Positions 1 to 63,870 of a stretch of DNA of 64,000 bases are shown here, one piece after another. Made by a program: the position numbers and the translations under genes. Each line of letters starts with the position of its first letter. Position 1 is the stretch's first letter. The stretch lies in NCBI GenBank assembly GCA_032128875.1, contig JAVLKG010000008.1, positions 211,212-275,211 on the forward strand, in the 5' to 3' direction. This DNA comes from Candidatus Melainabacteria bacterium 17Bon1m. Its GTDB lineage: Bacteria; Cyanobacteriota; Vampirovibrionia; Obscuribacterales; Obscuribacteraceae. The notes under the pieces are model-generated. The model was not told where the DNA came from. It was given only the letters and a program-made list of their open reading frames with translations, and ran no database searches.

Positions 1-32
1 GGCTTTGCAAATCTACGTCTGAAGGTGGAAAT

Positions 33-2663
33 ATGACCAAGCGAAACGTCACGAAAGCGGAAGTTACCCCGCTTTACGCCGGTCTTCCTGAGAAGTATCG
101 GCTGGCTCGTGAGAGATTTGGACGCCCGCTTACGCTGGCTGAGAAGATTCTCTCCGCTCACCTTGACCGCTGGAACGAGGGCGAACAGCACCCGGTCCGC
201 GGCAAATCGCAGGTTTTCCTACGTCCCGATCGAATCGCCTTGCAAGATGCAACAGCGCAAATGGCGCTCTTGCAGTTCATGCAGGCGGACCTCGACAAGG
301 TCTATGTGCCGACTACCGTGCACTGCGACCACCTCATCCAGGCTCGCGTTGGTGCCAAGCTCGACTTGCTCAATGCGCTGGATTCCAACTCGGAAGTCTA
401 CGATTTCCTCAAGTCTGCCAGTACCAAATACGGTATCGGCTTCTGGAAGCCCGGCTCGGGTATCATCCACCAGGTGGTGCTGGAAAACTACGCGCACCCG
501 GGCTGTCTGATGATCGGCACCGACTCGCACACTCCCAATGCGGGCGGGCTCAACATGCTGGCTATCGGCGTTGGCGGTGCTGACGCGACATTCACGATGG
601 CTGGCGAACCCTGGGGTTTGCGGTGGCCGAAACTGATCGGTGTGAAACTGACCGGCAAGTTGAACGGCTGGGCCGCGCCCAAGGACATCATTCTCAAGCT
701 CGCCGGCATCCTCACCGTCGACGGCGGCACCGGTGCCATCGTCGAATATTTCGGCTCAGGCTGCAGTTCTATCAGCGCCACGGGCAAAGCGACCATCACC
801 AACATGGGCGCCGAGCTGGGTGCAACGACCTCCGTCTTCCCGCTCGACGACCACATCCTCGACTATCTGCGCCTGACCGGTCGTGGTGAAATCGCGGAGC
901 TGGCTTCGCAGTCGAAGCAGTATTTGACTGCGGATGCTGAAGTCGAAGCGGAGCCGGAGAAGTACTTCGACCAGGTGATCGAGATCGATCTCGACACTCT
1001 GGAACCGCACATTGTCGGTCCTCACACGCCCGACTTGGCGCGCCCGCTCTCGGCGTTCAAAGCCGAAGTCGCCGCCAAGGGTTACCCTGCCAATCTGCGC
1101 TACGCGCTCATCGGCAGCTGTACGAACTCAAGCTACGAGGACATGAGCCGCGCTGCATCCGTCGCACGACAGGCTGCGGAAAAGGGCTTGAAAGCGCCGG
1201 TCGGCTTCATGGTGACGCCGGGTTCGGAGCAGGTGCATCAGACCATCAATCGCGATGGACAGATGGCCGACCTCCAGTCCGTGGGCGCCAACGTGCTCGC
1301 GAATGCCTGCGGTCCGTGCATCGGACAGTGGCGTCGCGACGACATCAAGGAAGGCGAGCGCAACTCGATCATCACTTCCTTCAACCGCAACTTCCCACGT
1401 CGCAATGACGGCAACGCGGAAACACTGGCTTTCATCGCCAGTCCGGAGATCGTCACGGCATTCGCGCTGGCCGGCACTCTCGACTTCAACCCGCTTGAAG
1501 ACGAGCTCACCGCCGCCGACGGCAGCAAATTCAAACTGGCACCGCCACCGCAAGCGGGGCTGCCGGTGAAGGGTTTCAGCCAGCTGAGCGACTCCGAGCT
1601 TGGTTACGTCGATGCTGCCGAAGGGCGCAAAGACGGAGCTGTTCCCACCATCGCCATCGGCGAGAAAAGTGAGCGGCTGCAGGTGCTGTCTCCCTTCCCG
1701 CGCTGGAATGGCGAAAATACTTTCGACGCACTGCCGGTTTTGCTGAAGGCAAACGGCAAATGCACCACGGACCACATCTCCCCGGCGGGACCGTGGCTGA
1801 AGTACCGTGGTCACCTCGATCGTATCTCGGACAACATGTTCCTCGGCGCCAACAACGTGTTTACGGACAAACCAGGCACCGGCAAGGACGTCAACACGGC
1901 AGCGATTGGGAAACTGTCGGACATCGCGCGCGAGTACAAGAAGCAGGGTCTGGGCTGGGTTGTGGTCGGCGACCAGAACTACGGCGAAGGTTCCAGCCGC
2001 GAACATGCCGCCATGTCGCCGCGCTTCCTCGGCTGCAAGGTCGTGATCGCTCGCAGTTTTGCGCGCATTCACGAAACCAACCTGAAGCAGCAGGGCATAC
2101 TGCCACTCACCTTCTCCGACCCTGCGCATTACGACCTCATCCGCAGAGCGGATGACCGTATCTCTGTGCATGGGCTGAAGGACCTGGCAGTGGGCAAGCC
2201 CGTCAAGGTCTTCATCATTCACTCGGATGAAGTGACGGACGAAATCACCGCCAATCACACGCTCACCGAAGAGCAGATTGCCGTCTTCAAGGCGGGCTCG
2301 GCTCTCAATCACGTCGGCGATCGACGCAAGGCGGAAGCCGCGAAAGCCGACAAGCCTGCTGGCGCGGGCGCGAAACGCAACCCGAATTGCAAGTGCAAGC
2401 GTTGCGCTTGCGGCGACAAGAAAGGCAAGGCGGGCGAAACCGGCGCGAAGGGTGGCATGTGCGGCGACAAAACTCCGGCCGAGAAGCCGCGCGGCGATGC
2501 CAACGGTGACACCACAAATGGTGCTGTTCCTCCTGGAGGCAATGGCAACACTGGCATCACCAACAACGGCAAGTTCGGCAATCCGGACGCAAACCGTCCG
2601 GCGCCGGCTCGCGAGGAATCGCTACTGTCCCGCTTCTGGCGCTGGCTGACCAGCTGGTTCTAG
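33..2663 (+). CDS. acnA: Aconitate hydratase (mitochondrial-like AcnA family) with ~110-aa C-terminal extension
   Basis: Motifs [70 protein letters not shown]. Confidence 0.95.
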
Positions 2664-2672
2664 CCATCATTT

Positions 2673-2726
2673 GTAGGGGAGCCGCATGCGGCTCCCTGTT
2701 CAGGGCTGCGCATGCGCAGCCCCTAC
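2673..2726. repeat. REP doublet (REPIN-like), copy 1
   Basis: GTAGGGGAGCCGCATGCGGCTCCC-TGTTCA-GGGCTGCGCATGCGCAGCCCCTAC: two perfect palindromes, each half starting with GTAG on opposite strands; 9 nt after the acnA stop. Confidence 0.75.
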
Positions 2727-2887
2727 GCCGTGATGGGCAAATTTCTTGCAGGATTTTCTTCCGAAACGGGCGATGCATCGCGTCGTCCAAGGCTTTCCGA
2801 ACGGAGCGGCAAAAGTGTCGTTCCACTAGTTCGACTTTGAACAGGGTGATGCACCGCATTGCACTTTCAAAGCAACGGAGAAATCCC

Positions 2888-3949
2888 ATGACTAAAGTTT
2901 CAATTATCGGTGGCGCCGGTAACGTTGGTGCCACTGTCGCTCAGTATCTGGCGACAAAGAATCTCTGCGACGTCGTGATGCTGGACATCAACGAAGGCGC
3001 AGCCAAAGGCAAAGCTCTCGACCTGACGCAGGCAGTCGCTCTCACGGGCGGCAGCGCCAAGATCAAGGGCACGTCCGACTACAAGGACACTGCCAATTCG
3101 CAGGTGATCGTCATCACCGCCGGCAGCCCGCGCAAGCCCGGCATGTCGCGCGACGACCTGCTCAAGATCAACGCGAGCATCGTCGCCAACGCCGCGCGCG
3201 AATCGCACCGCTACTCTCCTAACGCCATCTTCGTCGTCGTGTCCAATCCTCTGGACGTGATGACTTATCTGGTCTGGAAGGAGACCGGCGTCTCGACGAG
3301 CCGCGTCATCGGCATGGCCGGCGTTCTGGACAGCGCACGTTTCCAGTCGTTCATCGCCGACGAGCTGAAGGTTTCCCCCGAAGACGTTCGCGCGATGGTT
3401 CTGGGCGGGCACGGCGACCTCATGGTTCCGCTGCCTCGTTTCAGCACTGTCAACGGCGTTCCCGTCACTGAGCTCATCAGTGCCAAGCGTCTCGAAGCGA
3501 TGAGCAAGCGCACCGCCAACGGTGGCGCCGAAATCGTCGAGCTGCTCAAGACAGGCAGCGCCTGGTACGCACCCGGCGCCGCAACCGCGCAGATGGTCGA
3601 AGCGATCATCACCGGCGGACGCAAGCTGTACCCTTGCTCGGTGCATACCGGCGAGAAGTATGGTTTGCCGGCAATCTTCACGGGTCTGCCCGTGATTCTC
3701 GGCAAGCGCGGCGTCGAGCGCGTGGTCAAGCTCAAGCTCAACAAGGCTGAGGTTGACGCGCTCAAGGCTTCGGCTGCTTCCATCGAGGCCAACGTGAAGC
3801 GGCTCAACGAGCTGCAGGCCGAGGCGGCGAAAGCTGCTGCGCCTGCTGCCGTTTCCCCCTCTGCCGCTACGCCCGTTACTGCCACCACTTCCGAGGCGCC
3901 CGCCCCGGAGGTTTCCACGAAAGCCGCGGACACAACGGCAAAGTCCTAA
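2888..3949 (+). CDS. mdh: Malate dehydrogenase (LDH-like MDH) with Ala/Pro/Thr-rich C-terminal tail
   Basis: KVSIIGGAGNVG Rossmann motif, TAGSPRKPGMSRDDLL, VSNPLD, LDSARF, VLGGHGD; start set at ATG 2888 after GGAGA. Confidence 0.95.
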   Translation: MTKVSIIGGAGNVGATVAQYLATKNLCDVVMLDINEGAAKGKALDLTQAVALTGGSAKIKGTSDYKDTANSQVIVITAGSPRKPGMSRDDLLKINASIVANAARESHRYSPNAIFVVVSNPLDVMTYLVWKETGVSTSRVIGMAGVLDSARFQSFIADELKVSPEDVRAMVLGGHGDLMVPLPRFSTVNGVPVTELISAKRLEAMSKRTANGGAEIVELLKTGSAWYAPGAATAQMVEAIITGGRKLYPCSVHTGEKYGLPAIFTGLPVILGKRGVERVVKLKLNKAEVDALKASAASIEANVKRLNELQAEAAKAAAPAAVSPSAATPVTATTSEAPAPEVSTKAADTTAKS

Positions 3950-4027
3950 CGGCTTCAGATGCGAACGCTTGCAGGGAGCGCAATTCCGCTTCCTGCAGGC
4001 GCGCACTGCGACGCAGGAGAAAATGAT

Positions 4028-5830
4028 ATGGAGCGACTAAAACTGATCATTCGGACGGGATGGCGATTTGCCGGTGGTTACCGCCTCGCCATACTGGGCT
4101 ACACCGTCCTCTTCATGATCGCTCAAGCGACAGCCCTTGCAGAGCCCTATCTTCTCGGGCTCATGCTCAACGCCGTGCAAAACGACCTCACCCAGGGTGC
4201 GGCCGGCAACCAACAGTTGCTGCACGATGTCATCTATTACACGAGTTTGTTCGTCGGACTGAAAGTGATCTTCTGGTCCATTCACGGTCCAACACGACTG
4301 CTCGAGCGTTATGTGGCGTTTCGAATTACGTACGCCTACAAAGCGCATATGTTCCAAACAGTCACCAACCTGCCCTTGAAGTGGCAGCGCGAGCACCACT
4401 CGGGCGAAAGCATCGACAAGATCAACAGAGCCTACAACGCTCTGTCAGACTTCTTCCAGGGCACCTTCGATATCACCTACATGGTGTGTCGTCTGGTCGG
4501 CACGCTGGTCATTCTGTATTACTTCATGCCGATGGCGATGTTGACAGTTGCCATCACTTCGGTTGCCGCGATGTACATCATTGTTCGCTTCGATCGAACG
4601 CTCTCGAAGCAGTATGACGAGCTGAACAAGAAGCAAAACTACATCGCAGAAGCCATTCACGATTACGTGACGAATATCGTCACGGTGATCACGCTTCGCC
4701 TCGAGAAGAAAACTCTCGAGGAAGTGAAGCGCCGCATGCTCATTCCGCTGCCGCTCTACAAATACAACAACGCTCTCAACGAGTGGAAGTGGGGTGTCAC
4801 GGCGGTGATGATCGCAGTCATGACTGGCGCGGTGCTCAGCTACTACACGTACAGCACCATCGCTGTCGGTGGCGCTATCATGGCGGGCACGCTGTTCACG
4901 CTGTTCGACTACCTGAGGCGAATTGGCGATTCGTTCTACAACTTCGCCTCGCAGTACGGTCGCATCGTGCGCATTGCAGCTGACGTTCACGCGGCGGATC
5001 TCATCCTCACCGACATGGACAACACGCCCAAGCCGCCTGCTGATGCGAAACTGCCCGAAGCCTGGAGGCAAGTTTCGGTGCAGAATCTCAGCTTCTCCTA
5101 CCAGGACAAAACCGACCGCCGAGTCAATCTCAACAACGTCGGAATCGAACTGGTGAAGGGCAAGGCAATTGCCATCGTCGGACAGTCGGGCAGCGGCAAG
5201 AGCACTCTATTGCGCTTGTTGCGCGGACTGGACAATTCCGATCAGGTGCGCGTCCTGGCTGATGGCGTTGTGCAGAAGCATCGCCTGCATCATCTCTCCG
5301 AGTGCACCACGCTGATGCCGCAAGATCCGGAAATCTTTGCCGATACAATCCGATTCAACATCGGCTTCGGCATGGAGAAGTCGGACGACGAGATCATGGA
5401 AGCTGTTCGCAATGCTCGCTTCGAATCGGTGTTGGCGCGACTCCCCAAGGGTCTCGACACCAACATCGCAGAGAAGGGCATTAATCTGAGCGGCGGCGAA
5501 AAGCAGCGGCTCGCCCTTGCGCGCGGCTTCTTCTTCGCGCGAGGCAGCGACATTCTCTTGCTCGACGAGCCGACCAGCAGCGTGGACACCGCCAACGAGC
5601 GCGTGATCTACAACAACCTGCTCGGCAATTTCCGCAAGGATCGCTGCGTGGTCTCGACCATCCACAAGCTACACTTGCTTGAGATGTTCGACGTCGTCTA
5701 CGTTCTGGACAACGGCAATCTCGTGGAGATGGGCTCGTTTACCGACCTCATCGCTGCGGACGGCAAGCTCGCAGAGCTCTGGAGAAACTATCAAGCAGCC
5801 TCGGCTTCGAGCGGAGAGATTCCGTCATAA
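4028..5830 (+). CDS. ABC exporter, fused permease/ATPase
   Basis: N-terminal TM helices; Walker A GQSGSGKS, signature LSGGEKQR, Walker B ILLLDEPT, H-loop; AGGAG RBS. Confidence 0.92.
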   Translation: MERLKLIIRTGWRFAGGYRLAILGYTVLFMIAQATALAEPYLLGLMLNAVQNDLTQGAAGNQQLLHDVIYYTSLFVGLKVIFWSIHGPTRLLERYVAFRITYAYKAHMFQTVTNLPLKWQREHHSGESIDKINRAYNALSDFFQGTFDITYMVCRLVGTLVILYYFMPMAMLTVAITSVAAMYIIVRFDRTLSKQYDELNKKQNYIAEAIHDYVTNIVTVITLRLEKKTLEEVKRRMLIPLPLYKYNNALNEWKWGVTAVMIAVMTGAVLSYYTYSTIAVGGAIMAGTLFTLFDYLRRIGDSFYNFASQYGRIVRIAADVHAADLILTDMDNTPKPPADAKLPEAWRQVSVQNLSFSYQDKTDRRVNLNNVGIELVKGKAIAIVGQSGSGKSTLLRLLRGLDNSDQVRVLADGVVQKHRLHHLSECTTLMPQDPEIFADTIRFNIGFGMEKSDDEIMEAVRNARFESVLARLPKGLDTNIAEKGINLSGGEKQRLALARGFFFARGSDILLLDEPTSSVDTANERVIYNNLLGNFRKDRCVVSTIHKLHLLEMFDVVYVLDNGNLVEMGSFTDLIAADGKLAELWRNYQAASASSGEIPS

Positions 5831-5894
5831 CGAGACGGTTCAAGACTCTCGAGAAGTCTCAAGAAGGGCTTCTGATTGAGTTCTGAAACTTCAT

Positions 5895-5946
5895 GGCGGG
5901 CGTCCCGATTCAAGGTTTTCCTTGGTCGGGGTGCCCGTCTTTTTTT
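5895..5946 (+). terminator. Intrinsic terminator after acnA-mdh-ABC
   Basis: GGCGGGCGTCCCGATTCAAGG / CCTTGGTCGGGGTGCCCGTC stem followed by T7. Confidence 0.75.
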
Positions 5947-6399
5947 GAGCCAGATGTTACTAGGCGTTATCGTACCTCCGAGAACCCCAAAAGCTCGCCC
6001 CACGTTAACACTCGCTAAGCTCGCGCAAATGCCACAGGTTCTACTTTTCAAGCTCACCGGCAACATTAGAGGGTATGAAACCCGCGCACAAGGTTAAGCA
6101 ACTTTCATATCCGCGCGAATGGTTTATTGCCGATCCGCGTGGGAGATCCCCCCTCATGATCGGTGTTTCTATTTACTTTTCGCTCGAATTTCATGACTCC
6201 CTATACCTAAGCTGAACGTACATGTTCTCTTGAATTTCAATTCTTCCAAAACCAACCACAGTCCATCATTCCTCCTTCAATCTGTGCTCACATCTGGGAC
6301 GTAAAGTCTTGGGTTCGCGCACTCTTTGGTGGATGAGCGATTCTGTAGCGGTTGTTGGAGAGAGAGCGTGCTGTTTCCAATCAACTGTGGAGAGATGCA

Positions 6400-8214
6400 A
6401 TGGAAAAGATTTCGATCAATCTCGTGGGTGGCGTTGCCGGCGATGCGGACTACGGTCTGCGTCTCTACAACGTCGGCAACGGCTTCGTCGGTTTCACCGG
6501 CAAGGTCGTCAGCCGCACTCACGATTCGATGTATCTCGGCTTCAGCTCGGAGCGCGCGTATACGGTCGCCGTCGAAGGTGACCTCGTCCTGTCGACCGAG
6601 ACCAACGATTCCTTCGTCGACAAGACGGATGGCGTCTATGGTTTCGACATCGACTGGAGCGATGCGGCGAAGAACTTCGGCAACGGCACCGGCAAGATCA
6701 TCGTGACCAACCCCGACTCCCCGAGCGACGTTTCGGTCGTCGAGGTATTCATGGGTGACACGCCGTCGGCTGTCGTCGAGTTCAAGCCGAACACGGGCAA
6801 CAACGGCACGGTCGTCATCCGCGAGGAGCTGGACGTCTCGGCCGTCGATCCCGTGATGAAGAAACTGCTCAAGGCGACCGACTTCAGCGACCCGTACGGA
6901 CTCGGCATCGAGTGCGTCGCGGCGCTGCTGCCGGTGCTCGAGTTCGACTATGGGCGTCTCTTCGACGTCACCATCAACCGGACGGAGAAATCCATGACCA
7001 ATCCCAAGGACAACGAAGGTGAAGGCATCATCGACGTTCTCATCGTCGACGGACCGACCATGCCCCTGGAGACGCTGAAGACCTTGCTCGACAGCGGCGT
7101 GCAGGTCTTCGTCGTCGGCGACAGCAACATGCCCGCCGGCGATGCGACGCGCATTGCGGATGAAAACGCCTTCTTCGCTGGCGTCGGCTTGGGTGAACGG
7201 ATCGACCATCCGTTCTGGGGACGTGACGGCATCGCGCCGGTGCTCGTCTCCGGGCTGTCGGACCTCGACGTGCTCGCACACGAAGTCCACCGCCCCTCGG
7301 ATGTCCTGGGCTTCGAGCGCATCGAGCACGCCGTTCTGCCCATCGGACCGATGGCTCACGACTTCGACCTCCCCTTCGGAGGTCACGCCGGAGCTGTTCG
7401 TGAGCCGTTCATGGACATCATCAGCATGCTGCCGGCACGCGCCTTCTGCGCACACAACCACGCGGGTGACTGCGCGCTCGTGGATGCGATGCTCGAAGGA
7501 TTCGGCGTCAAGCTGGGTCTGGAAGAGCTGCCGGAAGGTCTCGAGCGCGCCACGCTCAAAGACCTGATGGACAGCTACGGTGACGACGGTGTCAAGGTCG
7601 GTGGCGACAAGCGCGACTTCGGTCAGCTCGCTGGCACCCGGCAGAACGACATCAACAGCATCGCGCGGGCGGTCGCTGCGGCGGACGCTCTCGGCATCGA
7701 CACGAGCGACATCGCGTCCAAGCGCGACGAGCTTCTGGCGAAGCTGGCTGTGTTTTCCGATCGCTTCGAGGTCGGCGGCACGCACGAGGTGACGACGGAC
7801 GAAGCCGCCGTCATCAACACGGTGTTCGGCGAACTGTTCGGCATCCATCAGGAGCTGGACTCGTGCGTCTCGCACTGGCACCACTACAAGCAGCAGATCG
7901 AAGAGTCGCACAATCGCTGGTCGGCGGGTCTTGCCTCGCGCAAGCGCTCGTATCGCCTGGCGGACGACGCGCAGGACAACCGCATCGCGACGAGCTACGT
8001 CGACTATGCGGCCGCGCCGGAGGAAACCCTGGAGGCGAGCAAGACCGCGATGGTCGAGCTCTTTCAGGCGATCCAGCGGCGCGACCTGCGTGAGGCGAGC
8101 TTTACGGCCACCAAGGCGCGGCAGTTCAGCACGCGCGAGCACATGCTCGCCTCGCTGATTCGCCGCAACGTGCTGGTGCCCGTCGAGGAATCAGGGGTCT
8201 CCGCGGCTGCCTGA
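6400..8214 (+). CDS. Hypothetical protein (N-terminal domain paralogous to 8362..9009)
   Basis: Long ORF, strong codon bias, GGAGA RBS; shares RAYTVAVEGDLVLSTET and GVYGFDxDWS with the next gene. Confidence 0.85.
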   Translation: MEKISINLVGGVAGDADYGLRLYNVGNGFVGFTGKVVSRTHDSMYLGFSSERAYTVAVEGDLVLSTETNDSFVDKTDGVYGFDIDWSDAAKNFGNGTGKIIVTNPDSPSDVSVVEVFMGDTPSAVVEFKPNTGNNGTVVIREELDVSAVDPVMKKLLKATDFSDPYGLGIECVAALLPVLEFDYGRLFDVTINRTEKSMTNPKDNEGEGIIDVLIVDGPTMPLETLKTLLDSGVQVFVVGDSNMPAGDATRIADENAFFAGVGLGERIDHPFWGRDGIAPVLVSGLSDLDVLAHEVHRPSDVLGFERIEHAVLPIGPMAHDFDLPFGGHAGAVREPFMDIISMLPARAFCAHNHAGDCALVDAMLEGFGVKLGLEELPEGLERATLKDLMDSYGDDGVKVGGDKRDFGQLAGTRQNDINSIARAVAAADALGIDTSDIASKRDELLAKLAVFSDRFEVGGTHEVTTDEAAVINTVFGELFGIHQELDSCVSHWHHYKQQIEESHNRWSAGLASRKRSYRLADDAQDNRIATSYVDYAAAPEETLEASKTAMVELFQAIQRRDLREASFTATKARQFSTREHMLASLIRRNVLVPVEESGVSAAA

Positions 8215-8361
8215 CGGCGAGCAGGACATTCGTGCCCTGTTCGAAAAGGAGGTGACTGTGGTTTTGGCCACCGTCACCTCCTTCTAAACGCAAAGCTCCG
8301 CTTTGCGCAGCGGTGTGGAAATCCTTCTGCACTGCAACTTCTGATGATATGGAGAGGAACT

Positions 8362-9009: not shown

Positions 9010-9170
9010 GGAGCCTGCAGACGCGGATGAGCATGTTGATTTGAACAATCGACATCCGCATGGGAGGCGGCAGAAGCTTCGGCGCTGCCGTCTCCCACCA
9101 GTGCGTCGGAAGGAGCTCACCTTCTGACTGAGTGCATAGATATCTGCAACACAAACCGAAGAGGCTAGAA

Positions 9171-53351: not shown

Positions 53352-53490
53352 CTTATGTCCTCTGTGTTTGCCTCGCTTTCTGCGAGATCAGGTTGCAGGA
53401 TCGCGATATTCTCGGAGTGCGGAAAAACTCGTTTTGAGCTTCTCCGCACCCCATGCTTGATGCTCCTTGAGGAGTTCTTGGTGCTTGTAC

Positions 53491-55407: not shown

Positions 55408-55788
55408 TTCATCTCCTTCACAATAAGAAGAAGTTTCCAGAGAGCAAGACCAAGAAGAGCGAATCTCCTCTCAGACCTGCCGGGCGATAGCCCCAATTCA
55501 AGAGTTCGCCACCAAGACAACGCCAAGAAACAGACAACCCAGCCAATGCCCGACCAATGTCCACCGGGGAAAAGCCGGAAGAATCGTGCGAGAAGTTGAC
55601 TGGGAAGACTGGTTTAGTGGTTTTGGACTCGAGAAAAATTAGGCTGTAGAGATACTGATAGAATCGCAAAACAGTATCTATTCAGCCTAATAACGTAATG
55701 TAAAAAACGACCTCTTTACAAGCAATTACAAAGCTTACCAGAGCCGACCTTTTCTGGCGCTCCATGGAAAACGGGCAAGTAGCGTGAG

Positions 55789-56784
55789 ATGAACGAGCAA
55801 GCAAAGTCGCCTCGCACAACGATCAAAAAACTGTCGCTAGCGCTTCTCTTTTTAGCGACGCTAGTTTTGCTCGGCTTGTTTTTGCTCGCGCAACTTTTAG
55901 ATCCAACTTCCACGCTGCCAATTGATTCAGGCGCACCGGAGAAAGAATGCAACCTTTATGAAAACCCGGTTCAAGTGCGCATTGATGGCTATGATGACGA
56001 TTGCATGGAACCATTTATAACTGGCGATGGCGGATACCTCCTCTTCAACAACAGCAATTCAGCTCTTGTCGAAACGCACATACATCTGTGCAAAAAAATA
56101 GGAAAAAACCACTTCCAGCACTTGGGTTTGCTCGCTGGCTCCGTTTCCAAATCGAAGGACATGGCGCCTACAATCGATGCTGATGGAAACTTGTTTTACA
56201 CTTGCTTGCTCACATATGAAAAGGACGGCAACTCAATTTACTGTGGCAAGTTTGCCGATGAAAAACTTCAGAAGATTATCATTGCCAACGGAAAAATCTC
56301 CCCGAACAAACCGGCGGAGATCAACATGGACTGCGACATTAGCAAAGACGGCAACATCCTTATTCTGTCACGAGCGCATTTTGCAAACTACCTACTACCT
56401 CCGGATAAATCAGATCTGGCGATAGCAGAAAAAACAGACGGCAAGTTTTCGCTCAATCCGCAAAGTCAAAATGTTTTATCTAAACTAAACACCGACAATC
56501 TAGAATACGCTCCGTGCCAAACCTCTGATCAGCTCGAACTTTATTTCACAAGAGCGAGTAAGAAAGCTGTTTCCGGCAATTCAAAAAGGTTCGAGCCCTA
56601 TTTGCGCATAATGGTCGCACGACGGAAAGACCGTTTTTCACCATATGAAGAAGCAGAGAGGATCGCCGTACTGACAGGGTTCATCGAAGCACCAACGCTA
56701 ACCGACGACAAGCGAGAAATGTTTTTCCACAAAAAGATCAACGACAAATTCCGCTTGTTCAGAGCGATCCGCAGCTCCAAATGA
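55789..56784 (+). CDS. Exported TolB/PD40-like beta-propeller protein
   Basis: N-terminal TM; repeats EPFITGDG, APTIDADG, DISKDG, APCQTSDQ..LYFTR, APTLTDD. Confidence 0.7.
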   Translation: MNEQAKSPRTTIKKLSLALLFLATLVLLGLFLLAQLLDPTSTLPIDSGAPEKECNLYENPVQVRIDGYDDDCMEPFITGDGGYLLFNNSNSALVETHIHLCKKIGKNHFQHLGLLAGSVSKSKDMAPTIDADGNLFYTCLLTYEKDGNSIYCGKFADEKLQKIIIANGKISPNKPAEINMDCDISKDGNILILSRAHFANYLLPPDKSDLAIAEKTDGKFSLNPQSQNVLSKLNTDNLEYAPCQTSDQLELYFTRASKKAVSGNSKRFEPYLRIMVARRKDRFSPYEEAERIAVLTGFIEAPTLTDDKREMFFHKKINDKFRLFRAIRSSK

Positions 56785-56843
56785 GGTCAAAGCTCAGACG
56801 AAAGGCACGACTTGAAAGCAACAAATTCAACGTCAATTGATTA

Positions 56844-58046
56844 TTAGCGGCGCGAAAGTCGCTTCACTACTTCTTGCAACTGATGCTGACCTTCTCTGCT
56901 CAAGTTAGGTCTCTTCATGCCCCAATCCCCCTGGTCTGGAATGTGGAGAATCTTGTATTGAAGTGGCGCAAGACCGGGGCGTCCCAGCTCGCGGTCCGCA
57001 CGAGTGGAAAGATCAACGACGCGCTCGTATGTCCTTCGGCCGTCTGGCTGTGTTTCTCTCTTGCCGGCGAAGGGTCCTTTGTCAGTGATCACAACCTGCA
57101 CTTCTTTCTGAGTGGCTGGATTGTACACACTCAAAACAGTTCCGAAAGGAAGCTCACGGCTGGCAGCGGTCATTTGCTCGTTGTGGTAGCGAATACCGCT
57201 GGCAGTCTTGCGTCCATTCCACTCTGCTCCATAGGTCGATGTTAAACCTGTGAAGCGGTCTCCGACATCGAACTTCGCATCAAGCGGATTCTTGATGGTT
57301 CCATTAGGAACATTGCTGAGATTTTCGGGCGGAGTTAGATCAGGCTTGAGGCCCCGCACGACTGGCTTCTTGGCGCGATCTTCCGGCTTTTCTATTCGTT
57401 GATCAGGTGTTTGCTCAACTCTTGGCTCTGTTCGGCGGTCCGGTGTTTGTCCAGGAACTTGATCTTGCCTGCGATCGGGTCTTTGATCTTGTTTGCGATC
57501 TGGTCTAGGCTCTGGCCGTGGAATATTACCCTCCGGCAGCCCTTTGTTCAAACGTTCCGAAATGCGCGCTCGCAGTCCAGGATCTTCTATATTTTTCAAA
57601 ACTGCGTCGCGATTCTTTTCTGTAAGAAGTTCATCGCCGCGTCTCAGAGTCTTCGCGTCCGGATGATCAGTTGCCCAGCCTTTTTTCAAAGCTTCTGTAA
57701 ATTCCTTCTTCTCTTTGTGAGTGAATTCGCCACCCAACAAACGTTCCGCAGATTGGAAATAACCTTCGCCTTTCTTGACCTTGGCGGCGTTCAAAGAATT
57801 TTCTGAAAGCGGCTGCCTGTCTGCTCCGGCAACAACTCGGTCGCCATCAGTAAGGGCAAAAGTCGGATTGCCGACATCTCTCTGGACACCTCTGGTCTCG
57901 ACTGCGGCAACTTGAGTTCTATTTCTGTCTAAAACAGAAGTGTCTTCGCGCCGCGATAAATCAACGAGCGGTTCGGTTCGCTGATCAGAAGCAGTGCGCA
58001 CAGCAGTGCGCTCCACTTGCGTGGGGACGTCATGATTGATAGCCAT
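56844..58046 (-). CDS. RlpA-like double-psi beta-barrel (lytic transglycosylase) domain protein with long N-terminal region
   Basis: STYG...GRKTASG...MTAASRELPFGT...VVITDKGPF...VDLS; start uncertain. Confidence 0.82.
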   Translation of the reverse strand: MAINHDVPTQVERTAVRTASDQRTEPLVDLSRREDTSVLDRNRTQVAAVETRGVQRDVGNPTFALTDGDRVVAGADRQPLSENSLNAAKVKKGEGYFQSAERLLGGEFTHKEKKEFTEALKKGWATDHPDAKTLRRGDELLTEKNRDAVLKNIEDPGLRARISERLNKGLPEGNIPRPEPRPDRKQDQRPDRRQDQVPGQTPDRRTEPRVEQTPDQRIEKPEDRAKKPVVRGLKPDLTPPENLSNVPNGTIKNPLDAKFDVGDRFTGLTSTYGAEWNGRKTASGIRYHNEQMTAASRELPFGTVLSVYNPATQKEVQVVITDKGPFAGKRETQPDGRRTYERVVDLSTRADRELGRPGLAPLQYKILHIPDQGDWGMKRPNLSREGQHQLQEVVKRLSRR

Positions 58047-58353
58047 AGTAAATGGGGTTCTGTGGTTCGGGGAGGAACCTAAATCTATGCTCGAGAGCGT
58101 GAAAAGTTTGTGACTATTTGCCCAAATCGCAGAATGCGTCAATTAAAGCGGACGGGTCATATATAACGCGGTACCACTCAAACATACTAATTGCTTTAGT
58201 ATCAACAGGTCCAAAACCAAAGGCGCAGTGCAAGGATGTTTCCATCTCTACACTGCGCCAGGGGTGGCGTCATCAGGTTTGCGAGTGCATTGTTTTCACG
58301 TGCGGCGTATTGGCTGATGACGACATGTTTTCAGAGCGTTTGGTCGCCCTGTC

Positions 58354-58725
58354 TTACTTCACTTTGCGGTGAACGAGCGCCGCTGCAACGCCGGCGAGGC
58401 CAACGGAGAACGCGCGTCCCATGAAATCGCCCGAAAGCATCGAGCCACCAGGCAGATGCCCGGTCATGAAGAACGCCGCCCAGGCGAGCAAGATCCAGAT
58501 CACGACACCGATGACGGCGCCGGAGCCGATATTGCCTACGAGCGAACGCTCGCTGTTCTTGCCGACGAACAACAGCCAGGTGTTGATCAAGAAGCCGACC
58601 ACGAGCGCGGCGATGGTCACCGGTCCCGTGAGAATCATTGCGAAGCCGTGCATGAAGATGCCGACCGCAAGAAGAGTCGCAGCCGAAGCAGCGACGCCCA
58701 GAAGGAAGCCAATTTCCTTCTTCAT
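58354..58725 (-). CDS. Four-TM membrane protein
   Basis: Hydrophobic; AAAGGG RBS. Confidence 0.7.
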   Translation of the reverse strand: MKKEIGFLLGVAASAATLLAVGIFMHGFAMILTGPVTIAALVVGFLINTWLLFVGKNSERSLVGNIGSGAVIGVVIWILLAWAAFFMTGHLPGGSMLSGDFMGRAFSVGLAGVAAALVHRKVK

Positions 58726-58756
58726 GTGAATGCCCTTTTTGGCTGTGGCGAAAGAA

Positions 58757-59077
58757 TTACTTCTTGTCGCCGCTGTTGGAAGACGACTTCGTGCGGAATG
58801 CCAGAACGAAGCCAACGATGGGTGAGGTGATCATGCTGACGATCATGCCGACGCTGACAGCGTCCGAGGACAGCCAGTGGCTGAACACATGACCGAAGAG
58901 CAGCATGCCGACGAGCGCGCCGGACATGATGACGAACACGCCACCGAAAGGACCGCCGCCGTCGCCGGCTTTGTTGGTCTTCGAGTAGGTGGTCGCCCAG
59001 AACCAGCGGCCGGTCAAGAAGGCGACCAGACCGGAGAGAAACGCGGCGGCGATGCCGACGAGAATCAAGGTGAGCAT
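58757..59077 (-). CDS. Three-TM membrane protein
   Basis: Hydrophobic; AGGAG RBS. Confidence 0.7.
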   Translation of the reverse strand: MLTLILVGIAAAFLSGLVAFLTGRWFWATTYSKTNKAGDGGGPFGGVFVIMSGALVGMLLFGHVFSHWLSSDAVSVGMIVSMITSPIVGFVLAFRTKSSSNSGDKK

Positions 59078-59202
59078 GGTAGAACTCCTGTGCAATCTGT
59101 TTGCGTTGCGAAAGCTTGATCGGCACCACAGGCAGTGGCAGCGGCCAAGGATGAATGAGCGCTGTCAGACACACGACAGCGCCCTTGGGAAACGGCGTTC
59201 AG

Positions 59203-60009
59203 TTACGCCGGGCTGATCTCGATGCGAGCACCCGTCGATGGGTTGCCGAATTCCTGCACCGCCGAGCCGCCGCGCTTGAAGAGCTCCCAGAAGGGGCTTT
59301 CGTAGCCGGACGAGCCGGGGGCAAAGGCGATATCACCTTCCGGCACACTGAAGCTGCCGTTGGTGACTGTGGCATAACGACGCTTGTCGCCGACAATCAC
59401 CTTCACGCGGTCACCTTCTTTGAGGGAAGCGAGCATGCTGTGGCCGGCACGAATCGACGTCTTCATGTTGCCGAAGGAGTCGATGTAAGCAACGACAGCC
59501 TCAGGCATCGGCGGGACGATGGCCGGATTGGTGTGGTCGAGCGTCTTGTCCAGGAAGGACATATCGCCCTTGAGGCACTGCGCAACCGCCTTCGGAAAGT
59601 TGTCCCGCGAACGGAACTGGCTGCCCTTGGCTGAAGTCTTCGTGGACTTCAGCTCGACGATGTGCGGCAGAACGAACGACAGCGAGTAGCCGGAGTTGAC
59701 GACGAGAATCTGCGCACCGTTCTTGAGCTTGGCGTAAACCAGCCCTTCGCCCTCGTTGTCCTTACGCGCGCTGGTCACATCCTTGCGCGGAGCGCAATTG
59801 GCGAACAGAACGAGCTTGGAGGCGTGCGCGGTCGGCCGAGCAGCGAGCTGGGCGACGGCGAAGCCGGTAGCGACGGTATCGAACGAAGCGACCGATGTCT
59901 GCACGAGGCGAACCTTGCCCGGCAACTCATCGGAAAGCGCAGAGAGAATCTCGGACCAGGCGAGGTCGCCCGGCGCATAATCGCAGATCAGATGAACGCA
60001 GCCTTTCAT
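59203..60009 (-). CDS. Divergent SAM hydroxide adenosyltransferase / chlorinase-fluorinase (DUF62) family protein
   Basis: LICDY..GD N-terminus, FRSRDNF, YIDSFGNMKT, FSVPEG..AF..GSSG; GAGGAG RBS. Confidence 0.78.
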   Translation of the reverse strand: MKGCVHLICDYAPGDLAWSEILSALSDELPGKVRLVQTSVASFDTVATGFAVAQLAARPTAHASKLVLFANCAPRKDVTSARKDNEGEGLVYAKLKNGAQILVVNSGYSLSFVLPHIVELKSTKTSAKGSQFRSRDNFPKAVAQCLKGDMSFLDKTLDHTNPAIVPPMPEAVVAYIDSFGNMKTSIRAGHSMLASLKEGDRVKVIVGDKRRYATVTNGSFSVPEGDIAFAPGSSGYESPFWELFKRGGSAVQEFGNPSTGARIEISPA

Positions 60010-60709
60010 AGCCTGTCTCCTCATCTTCCTGTAAACGCACTAGCGCCTTTCAAGCAACTAGATGCGTATAGTGTTGGGATTCACGACGGCTCATGCAGTC
60101 GTGAGAAACAAATCGTTGTTCAGAGGCAAACACAGACAGCCAATCCGAGAGCGGTGTCACCTCACAGCAAGTGAAACTTACTCGCGGTGGTGTTTGGTGA
60201 CTGATGTGTCGGGTTTTGGTTGTCTGTGAGTCTAAGAGAAGGAACGAAATGTTTACTGAGGAAGCTAGACGATCAAGAGACTTGATTACTAGAGAAATAG
60301 AACTACAGAGTCAAATTGAAACGTTCTTCACGATCGCTAGCTATTTCATCCTGACATCCGCGAGTGTCAAAACTCCCCAGTGCAGAGAGTTTTTGAACAC
60401 ACCACGGCAACAATAACTTCAATCCTTGCCGTCTTAGACAGGGCTTAACTGGCGCGCCAAGAGGAATTCCGTCGGTTTGCTCATGTTGAAACTCGATCAA
60501 GATTCCAGCGCTACTATACTGTTTCATATCTCGAATAAAAAGTGAAAAACGAGTCAGCACGCCGGTTCCAAACAGGTCCGAGCAAGTCGGAACTGATTTA
60601 GGAAACAGCGTGTTGCTCTCGTTTTTCCCCAGGCGTGCCCGAATCGCGTGTCGAAACCAGTATCGAACCTCTCGACACTCGCAACGAAAAACGTATTTGT
60701 ACGCCTTCA

Positions 60710-60958
60710 CTACAACGTCTGCGCATAGGCACGAACGCGTTTGGCAACTTCGCCGTATGCGACTCCGAAGTCTCCATCTATCTCCTTTGCCATTTCGGCG
60801 ATTGCGTCGGCAAGGGCTTCGTAGCCCTTGCGATCAAACTTAAAACCTTCCGAATGCTCAGCATCAGCGACTTCACGTATCGCCGACACATAGGCCATCG
60901 AGGACAGCATGTCCAGGGAGCTGACGAGCAGCTCGCTCTGCAGCTTATTGGACAACAT
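60710..60958 (-). CDS. Small hypothetical protein
   Basis: AAGGAGG RBS. Confidence 0.65.
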   Translation of the reverse strand: MLSNKLQSELLVSSLDMLSSMAYVSAIREVADAEHSEGFKFDRKGYEALADAIAEMAKEIDGDFGVAYGEVAKRVRAYAQTL

Positions 60959-61039
60959 GTTATTAACCCTCCTTTAGGGCAAAAGAAGCAGAGGAGAAGG
61001 ATCGACGCCCCTCTCCTCTGCCCAAAACAAACACCGAGA

Positions 61040-61450
61040 TCACTGGGCAAGCGTCTTGCCGGTTCCGGTGTAGCACTCTTCCGCAGCCTTGAGCGCCTCA
61101 TCAGCGTGCTTGAGCGCCAGCTCGGCCTCGCGGATAAGGCCCGAGGCGACGTGGTCACTGGAGATACCCAGTGCACCTGCGATGCCAAAACACCGCTCCA
61201 AGAAGCGCTCGTAGTCATCGGGAGTGATGACCGGGGGGAGGTCCGTCTGCTTGCGCAGGGACTTGAGCGCGCTTCGCGTACGCTCTTGCGCGTAGCGGAC
61301 GTGCTGGGCGGCGACGAACCCGGCAACGCGAACGGCTTCAGAACTGTCACTTTGGTCTCCCGCAGTCACCCACGCGTGCATCTCCAGCGCACCGAAGAGC
61401 TTGGAGGCACGGTCTTGAACGGCGTGAAAACGATTGGTGAAAGAACTCAT
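61040..61450 (-). CDS. Hypothetical helical protein
   Basis: AGGAG RBS. Confidence 0.7.
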   Translation of the reverse strand: MSSFTNRFHAVQDRASKLFGALEMHAWVTAGDQSDSSEAVRVAGFVAAQHVRYAQERTRSALKSLRKQTDLPPVITPDDYERFLERCFGIAGALGISSDHVASGLIREAELALKHADEALKAAEECYTGTGKTLAQ

Positions 61451-61595
61451 GTGAAACTCCTGAACTGAGTGATTGAGAGATACACGAAAAAACCGCAAGA
61501 GCTAGTCGAAGAATTCGAATGACTCGAGCGATTCGATTCACCACTGCTACATACCGGAGCATAGGTCGGCAGAGTATTCCACCGCCGAAGCCGAT

Positions 61596-61805
61596 TCACG
61601 AAATGCGGTGCGCTTTGTTGCGGAGCGCATCCACATTCGGTGCCATGTAGCCGGCACCATATTTCTGGTGAAACAGCCGCAGCCGTTTGCTCATCGCACG
61701 CTGCCGCAGGGTCATCAGCCCCGCTCCCGCCAGCATCGAGACAAGCACGATGCCGAGCAGTTGAAACGAAGCAACAACCGAAATCAGGGACAACATCGAT
61801 AACAT
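61596..61805 (-). CDS. Small single-TM protein
   Basis: AAAGG RBS; TM then basic tail. Confidence 0.55.
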   Translation of the reverse strand: MLSMLSLISVVASFQLLGIVLVSMLAGAGLMTLRQRAMSKRLRLFHQKYGAGYMAPNVDALRNKAHRIS

Positions 61806-61901
61806 TGATCTGCCTTTCTTCTTAAACCACAAGAATTGACGCGATGAAAGAGACACCGCGTCCCTGCCGCGCGCGAAACACTCGCACTTGCGTCCTTGCC
61901 G

Positions 61902-62258
61902 TTACAGCCCGTCCGGGCGCTCCTTTCTTCGAGCCGCTGACAAACTGTCATCCTGTGCCAAGCCATCCAGCAGATCGCTACCGCATGGCGTCTTGTCGCC
62001 CTGAAGGTAAGTGCCGAACTCCCTGGTGGAATCTGCCCCCGCCTTCCAAAACGAATTTTGAAACTGCCCGTAGTTGATCACCGACTGATCTACTTCTGAG
62101 CGAGACTTGGCGTCATCTTCTTCTGTGTATAAGCGTGCGGGCGGCGTAGGACGCTCCCAAAGCATGCAGATCACAAAGACAAAGATGAGCAACTTGCAGA
62201 TGGCGATGATGACACGCACAACCGCGTCAGCATTATCCGACAACTCAAACTCGAACAT
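61902..62258 (-). CDS. Hypothetical single-TM protein
   Basis: One TM; co-oriented; start uncertain. Confidence 0.4.
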   Translation of the reverse strand: MFEFELSDNADAVVRVIIAICKLLIFVFVICMLWERPTPPARLYTEEDDAKSRSEVDQSVINYGQFQNSFWKAGADSTREFGTYLQGDKTPCGSDLLDGLAQDDSLSAARRKERPDGL

Positions 62259-62371
62259 TTGGAAGATTCCGATCAATGTCAAAGTTCTCTTTGCGGAGGC
62301 ACAGTGCCCACGCTGAAACAATAATCTGTCACGGCATTGGAAACGGGCGATTTCTTCGCCGCGCTGCAATT

Positions 62372-62575
62372 TCAGTCAGTGTTCTTCGGCGGAGCCTTGC
62401 GCGCTGGGCGCCAATTACGCTCCTGCTGTTGCTGCCGGGCTTTCCGGACCTGCCGACGCTCTTTGCTGCGAACGATGCGGGTGCCCACAACAGCGACAAG
62501 CGCGCTGGCGGCAAGCAAAGTTATGCAGGCGATAGCTAGAGTCGCAGAAGTGCTATAGGCAAGGAGTACGAACAT
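62372..62575 (-). CDS. Small single-TM protein with basic tail
   Basis: AGGAG RBS. Confidence 0.6.
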   Translation of the reverse strand: MFVLLAYSTSATLAIACITLLAASALVAVVGTRIVRSKERRQVRKARQQQQERNWRPARKAPPKNTD

Positions 62576-62685
62576 CGCAGTTCTCCTGAGTTTGAGGGAT
62601 AAATTCCGGCGACAACAATTGCCGTCGGAAATAAAACGGTGGCGCTGGTATTGCGACCAGCGCCACCTGGGTACGACCGGCAAAC

Positions 62686-63207
62686 TTAGCCGTGCGAGCC
62701 GAGCGCCTGCTTCACCTTGCTCATCCAGTCACCGCAAGGGCGAACAGGCTTCTCCCCCGCAGCAATGCGTGCCAGGTCATCTCCATGCTGTCGCTGACGG
62801 CAGGCTTGCATTTGCTCGCCCGACAGTTGACCGCTCCAGAGCACCTCGAGTGCCGAACCTTCGACGATCGGCACTGTGCCGCGGCTCAGCACATCATAGA
62901 GAAGACCGTTCCTCGAACAGTCGAGCGGGCGCTCTCCATTAAGTGAGAGCATGTGATTGACGGCTTCGACAGTAATGTCGTTGAGGTGCTCGATCTTGTC
63001 GTAGTAGGCAAGCCGCCCCTCCTTCGCCGCGCGGACGAGATGCTCGATGGTGCGCGCGAAAACAACGGGCTCCAGGGCGTCAGCGAGGATCAATTCGCCG
63101 ACGGACGTGCAGTACAGGCACACGCCGAGATCGTCATCCGTGACCTTGCCTTCGTTGAGTGCATCGCGCACCGCGGTCCAGGACAGGAAGAGCTTACGAT
63201 TCGCCAT
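62686..63207 (-). CDS. Hypothetical protein
   Basis: GGAGA RBS; first gene of minus-strand operon. Confidence 0.75.
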   Translation of the reverse strand: MANRKLFLSWTAVRDALNEGKVTDDDLGVCLYCTSVGELILADALEPVVFARTIEHLVRAAKEGRLAYYDKIEHLNDITVEAVNHMLSLNGERPLDCSRNGLLYDVLSRGTVPIVEGSALEVLWSGQLSGEQMQACRQRQHGDDLARIAAGEKPVRPCGDWMSKVKQALGSHG

Positions 63208-63870
63208 TGTGCTTCTCCAGTTACTTGAGGATCGAAACGAAACGCATATGGTTGTCCTGTTCTCCAAGACAACGTAACCAGATACTCGCGCCAACGCGCG
63301 TAGAACTGGGTTGATTGAGGAAGCGAAGTATCGTGCTGTGAGCCGTAAATTGTCCTAGTGAAAAAAGATGGAAGATATAAATCAGCATGCTGGAAAGCAG
63401 GAGCTATTCAAAATGGAATTTTTGTACTCACCTGTCTGCAGCAAAGGATCTCGGCTATTCATCAATAAGAACCACCCAACCAAAATCAGTTAAACCAACA
63501 CTCATAAAGTTAGCGATGCTACGCAACCAGGGACATTTGCACCGACGGCATGCAACAAGGCACAAAATACAAAAACGCCGATGACACCACCGGTGACATC
63601 AAGGCTGTTTGATTAAGCCAATCTTTTCAAATTCGAGCAGCTTTGCTAACTCAATTTATTGCCTTGATCTTTCAGCGACACTGCCCTGGAACACACAGGG
63701 AACTCCCCGACACACAGGTCTACAGCTGTCTTCCTGGGGCGCAAATTAGTTGGGCAACCATTTAGTCACACTAGACTGAACCGCATAAGAGAGAGCCTCC
63801 TGAGCCGCGCAGGTAATTTCCACAAACAAACACTCGCAATCAGAGCAGTCCTAGCAACTGCTAACTGCCG

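Follow-up and report, generated by a model that had tools for sequence, protein, structure and literature searches.

Two codon classes and their nearest described counterparts

In bacteria, heterogeneity of codon usage within a genome is normally ascribed to expression level, to recent transfer or to the replication strand. For acquired islands of atypical GC content an amelioration model was reportedly put forward by Lawrence and Ochman. In Streptomyces, developmental control is exerted through a single rare codon, TTA, and one tRNA, bldA, and the REP elements of enterobacterial operons and the puf hairpins of Rhodobacter act as intercistronic mRNA stabilisers. In grasses, genes fall into two classes by their GC content at the third codon position (GC3); stress-responsive genes are reportedly over-represented in the GC3-rich class, and it is debated whether selection or biased gene conversion causes the bimodality. 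Here we analysed a stretch of 64,000 nucleotides, called the window throughout (contig JAVLKG010000008.1, positions 211,212 to 275,211; G000:C8:211212-275211 in our numbering), from Candidatus Melainabacteria bacterium 17Bon1m, a member of the Obscuribacterales, which are non-photosynthetic relatives of the cyanobacteria. In this window, genes of a GC-rich codon class (class H) alternate in blocks with genes of an ordinary class (class L), both labels being taken from an earlier reading of its sequence, here called the original prediction. The organism is known from metagenome-assembled genomes (MAGs) alone; the one used here (G000) has 7.55 Mb in 35 contigs with a mean GC content of 0.50, an estimated completeness of 93% and an estimated contamination of 4.5%.

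The second codon class, H, is native and old, is actively maintained and comprises about 550 genes, or 10% of the genome; relatives have it as well. Its composition is conserved, stationary, bounded by the ends of transcription units and unlike that of ribosomal-protein genes. A large, functionally coherent class of discrete composition that is explained by none of the three usual causes, and that is kept across genera, is unusual for a bacterium, and a literature search whose coverage lay outside the subscription journals found no description of this pattern.

Each of the described systems shares some features with class H. Like genomic islands, it consists of kilobase-sized blocks of deviant GC content and codon usage, with many genes that belong to no family and with second copies of core enzymes; unlike such islands, its blocks keep their order across species and one gene pair across genera, its aconitase (AcnA) is native, its composition is stationary with edges at transcription-unit ends, and no integrase, transposase or tRNA gene flanks its blocks in the window. 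With highly expressed genes it has in common a sense-strand preference for C-ending codons and an avoidance of A-ending ones, but the reference set of ribosomal-protein genes is only weakly biased here (GC3 about 0.55), and H genes add a preference for G-ending codons that goes against both the ribosomal-protein pattern and the tRNA set, while their spacers share the shift. The likeness to grasses lies in the two discrete classes per genome and in the link of the rich class to stress or conditional genes; unlike in grasses, the host is a bacterium, the genes form operons in a few chromosomal zones with hairpins between cistrons, and neither introns nor meiotic recombination gradients come into play. 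As in the REP and puf stabilisers, GC-rich hairpins without U-tracts lie between co-transcribed genes, and a comparable role may be proposed for them from sequence; unlike REP elements, the H hairpins are mostly unique and turned over between species, with one family of six copies seen. As with bldA and TTA, codon choice would mark a conditionally used gene set, but in class H the shift takes in the wobble positions of some 550 genes as a whole, and the contigs that carry the class yielded no special tRNA. Finally, GC-biased gene conversion has been proposed for bacteria (PMC4450053). It resembles class H in raising GC3 regardless of the tRNA optimum, with slight shifts in spacers and amino acids. 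The strand asymmetry and the unchanged rate of A/T-to-G/C substitution (W>S) in class H do not fit this process, and the block edges do not appear to fit it.

Extent, origin and transcript structure of class H

Gene calls from our own two-class codon model gave 5824 genes; the longest start was taken throughout, which shortens the spacers in both classes. As the original prediction had anticipated, codon usage is bimodal across the genome: a two-component mixture of GC3 was preferred to a single component (Bayesian information criterion -13926 vs -11510), the components having means of 0.513 (standard deviation 0.053, weight 0.897) and 0.746 (standard deviation 0.077, weight 0.103). A cut-off of GC3 of at least 0.65 places 557 genes in class H, with class averages of 0.758 for H and 0.511 for L in GC3, and of 0.556 and 0.465 in spacer GC. 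Ten of the 35 contigs, about 1.4 Mb, carry 535 of these genes interleaved with L genes; the zones are C7, C8, C13, C15, C18, C19 and C23 together with the first 130, 220 and 40 kb of C3, C5 and C12. Since the latter three contigs continue into ordinary chromosome, the zones are chromosomal; C1, C2, C4 and C6 hold 8 H genes among 2703. The co-oriented operons noticed in the window are a property of the class, with 349 of 388 adjacent H-H pairs running in the same direction (90%) vs 3207 of 5075 L-L pairs. A paralogue elsewhere in the genome was found for 230 of the 557 H genes and its best representative is an L gene in 119 of these cases; the AcnA, Mdh, ABC exporter, GH14 and SAM hydroxide adenosyltransferase (SAM-HAT)-like proteins of the window all have L-class copies elsewhere, at 46-66% identity. 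L genes in the mosaic contigs have a GC3 of 0.530 (n=412), vs 0.508 (n=3184) on C1, C2, C4, C6, C9, C10 and C11.

The entire window is syntenic with contig C49 of a relative, G007, with H and L blocks in the same order, and parts of it recur in G003, G002, G008, G012 and G004, which represent different isolates. Between G000 and G007, the GC content of 4-fold degenerate sites (GC4) is 0.781 and 0.782 in H genes and 0.551 and 0.562 in L genes, and these sites diverge by 0.285 in H (4985 sites) and by 0.487 in L (2861 sites). In other genera, the H-type acnA and mdh genes are adjacent in 6 of 8 loci, with a GC3 of 0.67-0.90 and flanks of about 0.50 in most; their 4-fold sites differ from those of the window by 0.49-0.63, where the ceiling for this composition is about 0.67. 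G017, from another genus, carries H-type acnA and prkA about 80 kb apart on one contig of 2.86 Mb. Public metagenomes from 12 studies also contain the region. Nothing in G011, a genome of the same genus (6.7 Mb in 20 contigs, 93% complete), matched H-type acnA, the H-class PrkA or window positions 31001-47000 (H and L parts alike), and its L-type AcnA is nearly identical to that of G000 (tree branches of 0.002 and 0.005); the zones are either truly absent from G011 or were lost in binning. Mosaic contigs may indeed be lost when binning is based on composition, which may explain MAGs of the genus that have no zones.

Phylogeny had been suggested as a check for both acnA and mdh, and AcnA is the gene family that we placed on a tree. 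In this quick IQ-TREE analysis the Obscuribacterales form one clade, split into an L-type clade and a sister H-type clade, both splits being supported at 99% by the Shimodaira-Hasegawa-like approximate likelihood ratio test; the H clade comprises 15 rows, all of them with a GC3 of 0.67-0.80. As a separate observation, H-type AcnA is about 100 amino acids longer than L-type AcnA at its C-terminus (876 vs 768 aa), and the same extension was seen in H-clade proteins from other genera, such as an open reading frame (ORF) of 873 aa in G014.

The direction of substitution was assigned by parsimony for 4-fold changes on the G000 and G007 branches, with G002, G008, G012 or G004 as outgroups. In H genes, the rates on the two branches are 0.074 and 0.075 for G/C-to-A/T changes (S>W) and 0.238 and 0.240 for W>S, which imply an equilibrium GC4 of 0.76 on both branches, vs an observed 0.78; for L genes the implied equilibria are 0.47 and 0.62. 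Class H is thus at or near its own compositional equilibrium, and as judged from this and from the GC3 of 0.67-0.90 at near-saturated divergence, its composition is not drifting to that of the host. All four types of G/C-to-A/T change (C>T, G>A, C>A and G>T) are 2.2-4.3 times rarer in H than in L, the C<>G rate is equal in both, and A<>T changes are rarer in H (14 of 381 sites vs 18 of 141 in L, small counts). The lower synonymous divergence of H genes follows from the deficit of changes to A/T, not from a lower overall rate or from recent exchange.

The shift in composition follows transcription units closely. Co-directional spacers have a GC content of 0.557 between H genes (n=255) vs 0.464 between L genes, and at H gene ends that lie beside L genes (164 upstream and 161 downstream edges) GC returns to the background of about 0.49 within some 80 bp. 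On the sense strand, the 4-fold sites of H genes consist of C 0.439, G 0.312, T 0.172 and A 0.077, with ratios of 2.2 for T/A and 1.4 for C/G, identically on both DNA strands. The structured spacers described in the original prediction proved to be a general feature, the mean z-score of minimum free energy (MFE) being -3.98 for H-H and -1.05 for L-L spacers (90 spacers per class, 10 mononucleotide shuffles each), with 74% of H and 26% of L spacers below -2; in the syntenic region of G007, 21 H spacers gave a mean of -3.93. Counted per kb, perfect hairpins (stem of 8 bp or longer) number 1.90 in H spacers, where shuffled sequence has 0.14, and 1.10 in L spacers, where it has 0.11; a T-rich tail follows 5 of 63 in H vs 66 of 261 in L. 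Stable stem-loops between genes and without U-tracts, as expected of mRNA-stabilising hairpins, are thus found in H spacers and likewise in G007. Most of them are unique and poorly conserved in sequence: between acnA and mdh, 4 of the 6 spacers folded from other genomes carry different strong hairpins (z -5 to -13) and 2 carry none, two more being too short to fold and one locus yielding no mdh ORF. A palindrome family, GGGAGCCG-CATG-CGGCTCCC, was seen in 6 copies among the perfect H-spacer hairpins, one of them at about 2676-2696 of the window. Structure extends into coding sequence, where the folding energy of 270-nt H segments is -104 kcal/mol and that of versions permuted synonymously within the gene is -98 (z -1.04, p 1.5e-6, n=32); for L segments the values are -77 vs -74 kcal/mol (z -0.34, p 0.24, n=32).

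The original prediction named codon usage like that of ribosomal-protein genes as a simple alternative, and the comparison speaks otherwise. The 31 genes of the ribosomal-protein cluster on C10 have a GC3 of 0.44-0.65, typically about 0.55, and EF-Tu has 0.60, vs the H mean of 0.76. Compared with the average of L genes, those for ribosomal proteins use more C-ending codons, prefer GAA and CAA and avoid GCG, ACG and GTG; H genes raise all G- and C-ending codons and behave in the opposite way for Glu, Gln, GCG, ACG and GTG. The two shifts from L nevertheless have the same direction for 39 of the 51 codons that move by at least 0.03 (r=0.58). The 4-fold composition is A 0.225, C 0.279, G 0.227 and T 0.269 in L and A 0.158, C 0.384, G 0.177 and T 0.282 in ribosomal-protein genes. 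Class H therefore combines a pyrimidine-ending preference like that of ribosomal-protein genes with a separate push to G/C. The H-preferred NNC codons match GNN anticodons; CAG, however, makes up 77% of H Gln codons, and among 68 tRNA genes the only tRNA-Gln found was that with the anticodon UUG, although one could be missing from a MAG that is 93% complete.

Gene content was scanned in 203 of the 557 H proteins, taken outside the window from C8, C13 and parts of C19, C7 and C5. The view that H genes are largely unrecognisable held only in part: Pfam matches at E<=1e-5 were obtained for 88 of these 203 and for 57 of 107 L proteins from the same stretches, and in the window at E<=1e-3 for 12 of 37 H and 10 of 21 L ORFs. 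The recognised H set includes two PrkA kinases with DUF444 and SpoVR; six TerD, TerC and a ter-linked biosynthetic set; and BatA/VWA/MoxR/DUF58 (the Bat operon) with Usp. Proteolysis is represented by FtsH, two ClpP, four S41 peptidases, M16, M24, M50, two PmbA/TldD, a rhomboid, S51 and a serpin, glycogen metabolism by glycogen synthase, debranching enzyme and glucoamylase, RNA-related functions by an RNA ligase, TruD, RNase T and TyrRS, and NAD metabolism by NadR-like proteins, NAD kinase and isochorismatase-family proteins; patatins and ion transporters were also found. L genes on the same contigs are rich in LRR Ser/Thr kinases, PAS/histidine kinases, GntR-type regulators and TPR proteins. 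Judging by these family names, the H set looks like a kit for survival and maintenance, to which the second copies of AcnA, Mdh and others would belong.

Proposed selection on transcripts and competing explanations

The explanation that we favour, and to which we give about an even chance, is that class H would be a programme for survival in which transcripts are under selection for GC-rich, structured and stable RNA. According to this model, selection on transcripts would hold the composition of H genes, with wobble positions avoiding A most and T next, so that the mRNAs would be GC-rich and highly folded; the inter-cistron hairpins without U-tracts would block exonucleases, a certain translational preference for codons ending in C would be superimposed, and the outcome would be mRNAs that persist while the cell starves or does not grow. 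Selection at the level of the transcript fits with the sharp edges, the asymmetry of the sense strand and the excess of hairpins. More tentatively, as we hold this wider statement to be somewhat less probable, the chromosomes of Obscuribacteraceae would be written in two codon dialects, with about 550 survival genes of non-growth set in a GC-rich, A-poor and hairpin-punctuated style that is selected for messages that stay long-lived and translatable under starvation or dormancy. Of the two origins offered in the original prediction, the separately expressed programme fits best, given the coherent function (stress, proteolysis, glycogen and RNA repair), the operons, the conservation and the stationarity; what did not turn up is a class-specific promoter motif. 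If transcript selection is at work, this would be a natural system in which synonymous GC content and intercistronic hairpins control the life of bacterial mRNA, and a marker, readable from sequence, of a survival programme in an uncultured lineage that is common in water systems. The survival-programme reading would further place class H beside the GC3-rich stress genes of grasses as their bacterial counterpart, with synonymous composition itself encoding membership of a life-stage programme.

Several observations weigh against this model. A 6-8-mer enrichment scan upstream of 252 H operon starts vs 2352 L starts found no shared promoter or operator (gapped and profile motifs were not searched for); the sole enrichment was of words that are CT-rich on the sense strand, with TTCTTC present upstream of 59 of 252 H starts (23%) vs 191 of 2352 L starts (8%). 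All four RNA runs consist of assembled contigs, which cannot rank genes by expression. Less than half of the class underlies the functional picture, since Pfam left 115 of the 203 sampled H proteins unmatched. GC1, GC2 and amino-acid composition are slightly shifted in H, as they would be under a general GC pressure, and the low GC content of divergent H-H spacers (0.472) comes from only five of them, convergent ones having 0.506 (n=17). The weaker contrast in G017, of which a 400-kb sample showed not two clean classes but a broad GC3 spread that peaks at 0.65-0.70 and trails off to 0.9, is due to a background GC3 there of about 0.65-0.70; this sample neither supports nor refutes bimodality in that genus. 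The W>S rate is not raised in H (0.24 vs 0.23-0.27 in L), as a simple fixation bias towards G/C would require, and together with fewer changes to A/T this is equally well explained by a lowered rate of G/C-to-A/T mutation. The polarisation by parsimony uses only sites at which the other taxa agree, and few such L sites were available (253 and 227). Parsimony is biased under skewed composition.

As to origin, it is extremely improbable that the mosaic arose from two organisms joined during assembly or binning. Some contamination is estimated for this MAG, but nine H/L alternations occur within the 64 kb of this single contig, the block order is that of G007 and in part of G002, G003, G008, G012 and G004, H-type acnA and prkA share the long contig of G017, and no break in the assembly was found at the block edges, where the original prediction had raised the possibility of coverage breaks: contigs of RNA run X2 bridge three H/L edges with zero differences, although this library, probably from the source sample, is not independent evidence for the assembly. 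A foreign origin is improbable as well. Under this explanation a replicon or donor of about 60% GC would have been taken up by the ancestor of the family and would be ameliorating slowly. The joint resemblance of GC1, GC2, GC3 and spacer GC to a 60% GC genome, the clustering of H genes in zones and the L-class best paralogues of 119 of the 230 genes, as expected of second copies, would agree with it, as would the raw polarised counts, in which S>W exceeds W>S (108:45 and 110:46). When the counts are turned into per-site rates, however, the equilibrium GC4 of 0.76 is close to the observed value, H-type AcnA lies inside the Obscuribacterales as sister to the L type, GC3 stays at 0.67-0.90 in genera with near-saturated 4-fold sites, and the synteny of the mosaic is kept. 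In agreement with the original prediction, integrase, transposase and phage structural families are absent from the Pfam matches of the 58 window ORFs, and no tRNA gene lies on C8 (flanking repeats were not searched for). The suggestion that class H represents the dispersed remains of a foreign replicon is thus unsupported. Ordinary translational selection, with H genes as the most highly expressed genes using optimal codons, is quite improbable. It could account for the shift shared with ribosomal-protein genes, including the favoured C-ending and avoided A-ending codons, and contigs from three metatranscriptomes of other studies (X18-X20) lie on the H block at 38.7-44.4 kb; yet ribosomal-protein genes and EF-Tu remain far from the H mean in GC3 and oppose it in GAA, CAA, GCG, ACG and GTG, and the GC-rich, structured spacers are left unexplained. 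The sparse or missing cover of the L block at 31.3-38.0 kb by X18-X20 was not used as evidence, since contigs cannot rank genes and the runs were picked by matching the window itself; moreover, L genes diverge faster at the nucleotide level, so that transcripts of relatives would fall below the 88% threshold. In X2, contigs reach 137 kb and cover a whole 20 kb evenly, and with DNA probably present in the library this run says nothing on expression.

Transcript selection has two main rivals, namely biased gene conversion, in zones prone to recombination, and a local lowering of the G/C-to-A/T mutation rate. In the former, which is unlikely, H operons would lie in zones where heteroduplex repair favours G/C at weakly constrained sites. 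G- and C-ending codons are both favoured even against the tRNA set, as the case of CAG illustrates, intra-operon spacers are GC-richer, GC1 and GC2 are slightly up, L genes in mosaic contigs are themselves raised in GC3, and the zones may vary among genomes, G011 lacking all three loci tested. Against conversion stand block edges that match gene ends within about 80 bp, the five divergent promoter spacers without enrichment, and the unaccelerated W>S substitution; A<>T changes, on which conversion bias should have no effect, are likewise less frequent in H, the equal C<>G rates give no sign of extra gene flow, and the sense-strand asymmetry is the same on both DNA strands, although translational selection on top could contribute to the latter. 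A local mutational regime, in which G/C-to-A/T mutation is lowered in H units, for example by transcription-coupled repair of deaminated or oxidised bases during non-growth, and which involves no selection on RNA, is rather unlikely too. The unchanged W>S rate fits it, the 2-4 fold deficit of changes to A/T being the sole clear difference in rate, and so do an effect bounded by transcription units and the touch on spacers and, weakly, on codon positions 1 and 2. It leaves unexplained the hairpin excess over shuffles of the same composition and the folding of H coding sequence, which is better than that of its own codon shuffles, and the four change types fall together where strand-specific repair would be expected to act on one strand. 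Should either gene conversion or such a regime be true, class H would be among the sharpest prokaryotic examples.

Layout of the window and minor observations

A 1-kb GC profile reproduced the block coordinates of the original prediction (Table 1), and its two spot counts of G+C, 37/60 at 7561-7620 and 22/60 at 15001-15060, are both exact. GC is 0.55-0.65 in the first four H blocks and in most of the fifth, and 0.45-0.54 in 12000-25700, 31300-37900, 44300-47000 and 55700-58100, with the exception of a single 1-kb bin at 0.58. Frame-resolved composition of the window ORFs places the contrast almost wholly at codon position 3: H genes with Pfam support have GC1 of about 0.62, GC2 of about 0.42 and GC3 of 0.72-0.91, vs GC3 of about 0.50-0.61 and similar GC1 and GC2 in L genes.

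Table 1. Blocks and genes of the window (positions count from its first nucleotide)
Feature	Position	Strand	Remarks
Class H block 1	1-11900	+	one co-oriented string; GC 0.55-0.65, GC3 0.68-0.89
H-type aconitase AcnA	33-2663	+	Pfam; block 1
Hairpin-rich acnA-mdh spacer	2664-2836	+	several perfect GC stems; MFE -82.8 kcal/mol over 173 nt
Ldh/Mdh-family dehydrogenase	2837-3949	+	Pfam; block 1
ABC exporter	3959-5830	+	Pfam; block 1
Five genes without family match	6352-8214, 8344-9009, 9132-9617, 9759-10388, 10556-11539	+	block 1
Class L block	12000-25700		GC 0.45-0.54 (one bin 0.58), GC3 0.50-0.59
OmpR-type response regulator and histidine kinase	13868-16023		Pfam
PAS histidine kinase	16038-18251	-	Pfam
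Response regulator	18448-19128	-	Pfam
Two large proteins without family match	19291-21672, 21831-25064		L block 12000-25700
Class H block 2	25900-30800	-	eight small co-oriented genes; GC3 0.76-0.85
Receiver-like protein	27190-27567	-	weak domain match, below curated cut-offs
Tandem paralogue pair	28289-28645, 28709-29068	-	block 2
Glycine-zipper lipoprotein-like protein	29642-30043	-	weak domain match, below curated cut-offs
Class L block	31300-37900		GC 0.45-0.53
TPR protein	33581-34996		Pfam
Response regulator	35164-35841		Pfam
GNAT acetyltransferase	35907-36386		Pfam
CHASE3 histidine kinase	36410-37864		Pfam
Class H block 3	38200-44300	-	also holds 133-aa and 172-aa proteins
S1-domain RNA-binding protein	38822-39754	-	GC3 0.92; block 3
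GH57/DUF3536 glucan enzyme	40487-42430	-	Pfam; block 3
GH14 beta-amylase	42663-44132	-	Pfam; block 3
malQ, GH77 4-alpha-glucanotransferase, class L	45055-46611	+	Pfam E 9e-182; GC3 0.55; flanked by two H blocks
Class H block 4	47100-55400		GC3 0.72-0.87; Pfam and NCBIfam matches
122-aa protein, 631-aa membrane protein, 225-aa membrane protein		+	block 4
TPR protein	50471-51496	+	block 4
S41 peptidase	51565-52536	+	block 4
204-aa protein		-	block 4
T4 Rnl1-like RNA ligase domain protein	53491-55407	-	block 4
Class L block	55700-58150		GC 0.46-0.52, GC3 0.48-0.52
331-aa protein	55789-56784		L block 55700-58150
DPBB-domain exported protein	56844-58142		Pfam; L block 55700-58150
Class H block 5	58300-63300	-	less clean than the other H blocks; GC 0.49-0.61, GC3 0.63-0.85
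SAM hydroxide adenosyltransferase-like protein	59203-60024	-	block 5

The L-class paralogues of the aconitase, dehydrogenase and exporter of block 1 are 66%, 58% and 54% identical to them, and the synteny of this block is kept in G007, G003, G002, G008 and G012. All genes of block 2 have a G007 orthologue in the same order, block 4 is syntenic in G007, and the L block at 31300-37900 diverges from G007 by 0.51-0.63 at 4-fold sites. In block 5, small genes with a GC3 of 0.70-0.85 are mixed with intermediate ones at 0.63. The L genes of the window include four two-component pairs or part-pairs, malQ, the GNAT acetyltransferase and the DPBB protein.

For window genes that Pfam left unmatched, NCBIfam gave sub-threshold likeness only (a GSP13-like S1 domain, OsmB-like glycine zippers and T4 RnlA), and look-alikes in the ESM Atlas amounted to no usable match for the 620-aa protein and to unnamed clusters for the 631-aa membrane protein. 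Two tandem paralogue pairs of H genes without a family match, 6352-8214 with 8344-9009 (51% identity over 167 aa) and 28289-28645 with 28709-29068 (34% over 116 aa), obtained no name from Pfam, NCBIfam or the Atlas.

Outside the window, an H operon with two PrkA kinases, DUF444 and SpoVR lies at G000:C7:13162-21532 (L121:3162-11532). The PrkA orthologue of G007 shares a 445-kb contig with the region syntenic to the window, and C7 and C8 are therefore probably neighbours. A complete-looking class H ter cluster at G000:C5:115001-135000 (L123) comprises four TerD, TerC, ATP-grasp_Ter, PRTase_2/TRSP, a C-C bond lyase and StiP/PELOTA. On the mosaic contig C13, a class L transposase of the IS1595 family (G000:C13:56972-57886; L117:16972-17886) is the only transposase among the 310 proteins scanned outside the window. 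The GH14 family is uncommon in bacteria, and this genome has two GH14 beta-amylase homologues that are 46% identical, namely the H copy of 489 aa in block 3 and an L copy of 971 aa at G000:C1:1036970-1039885.

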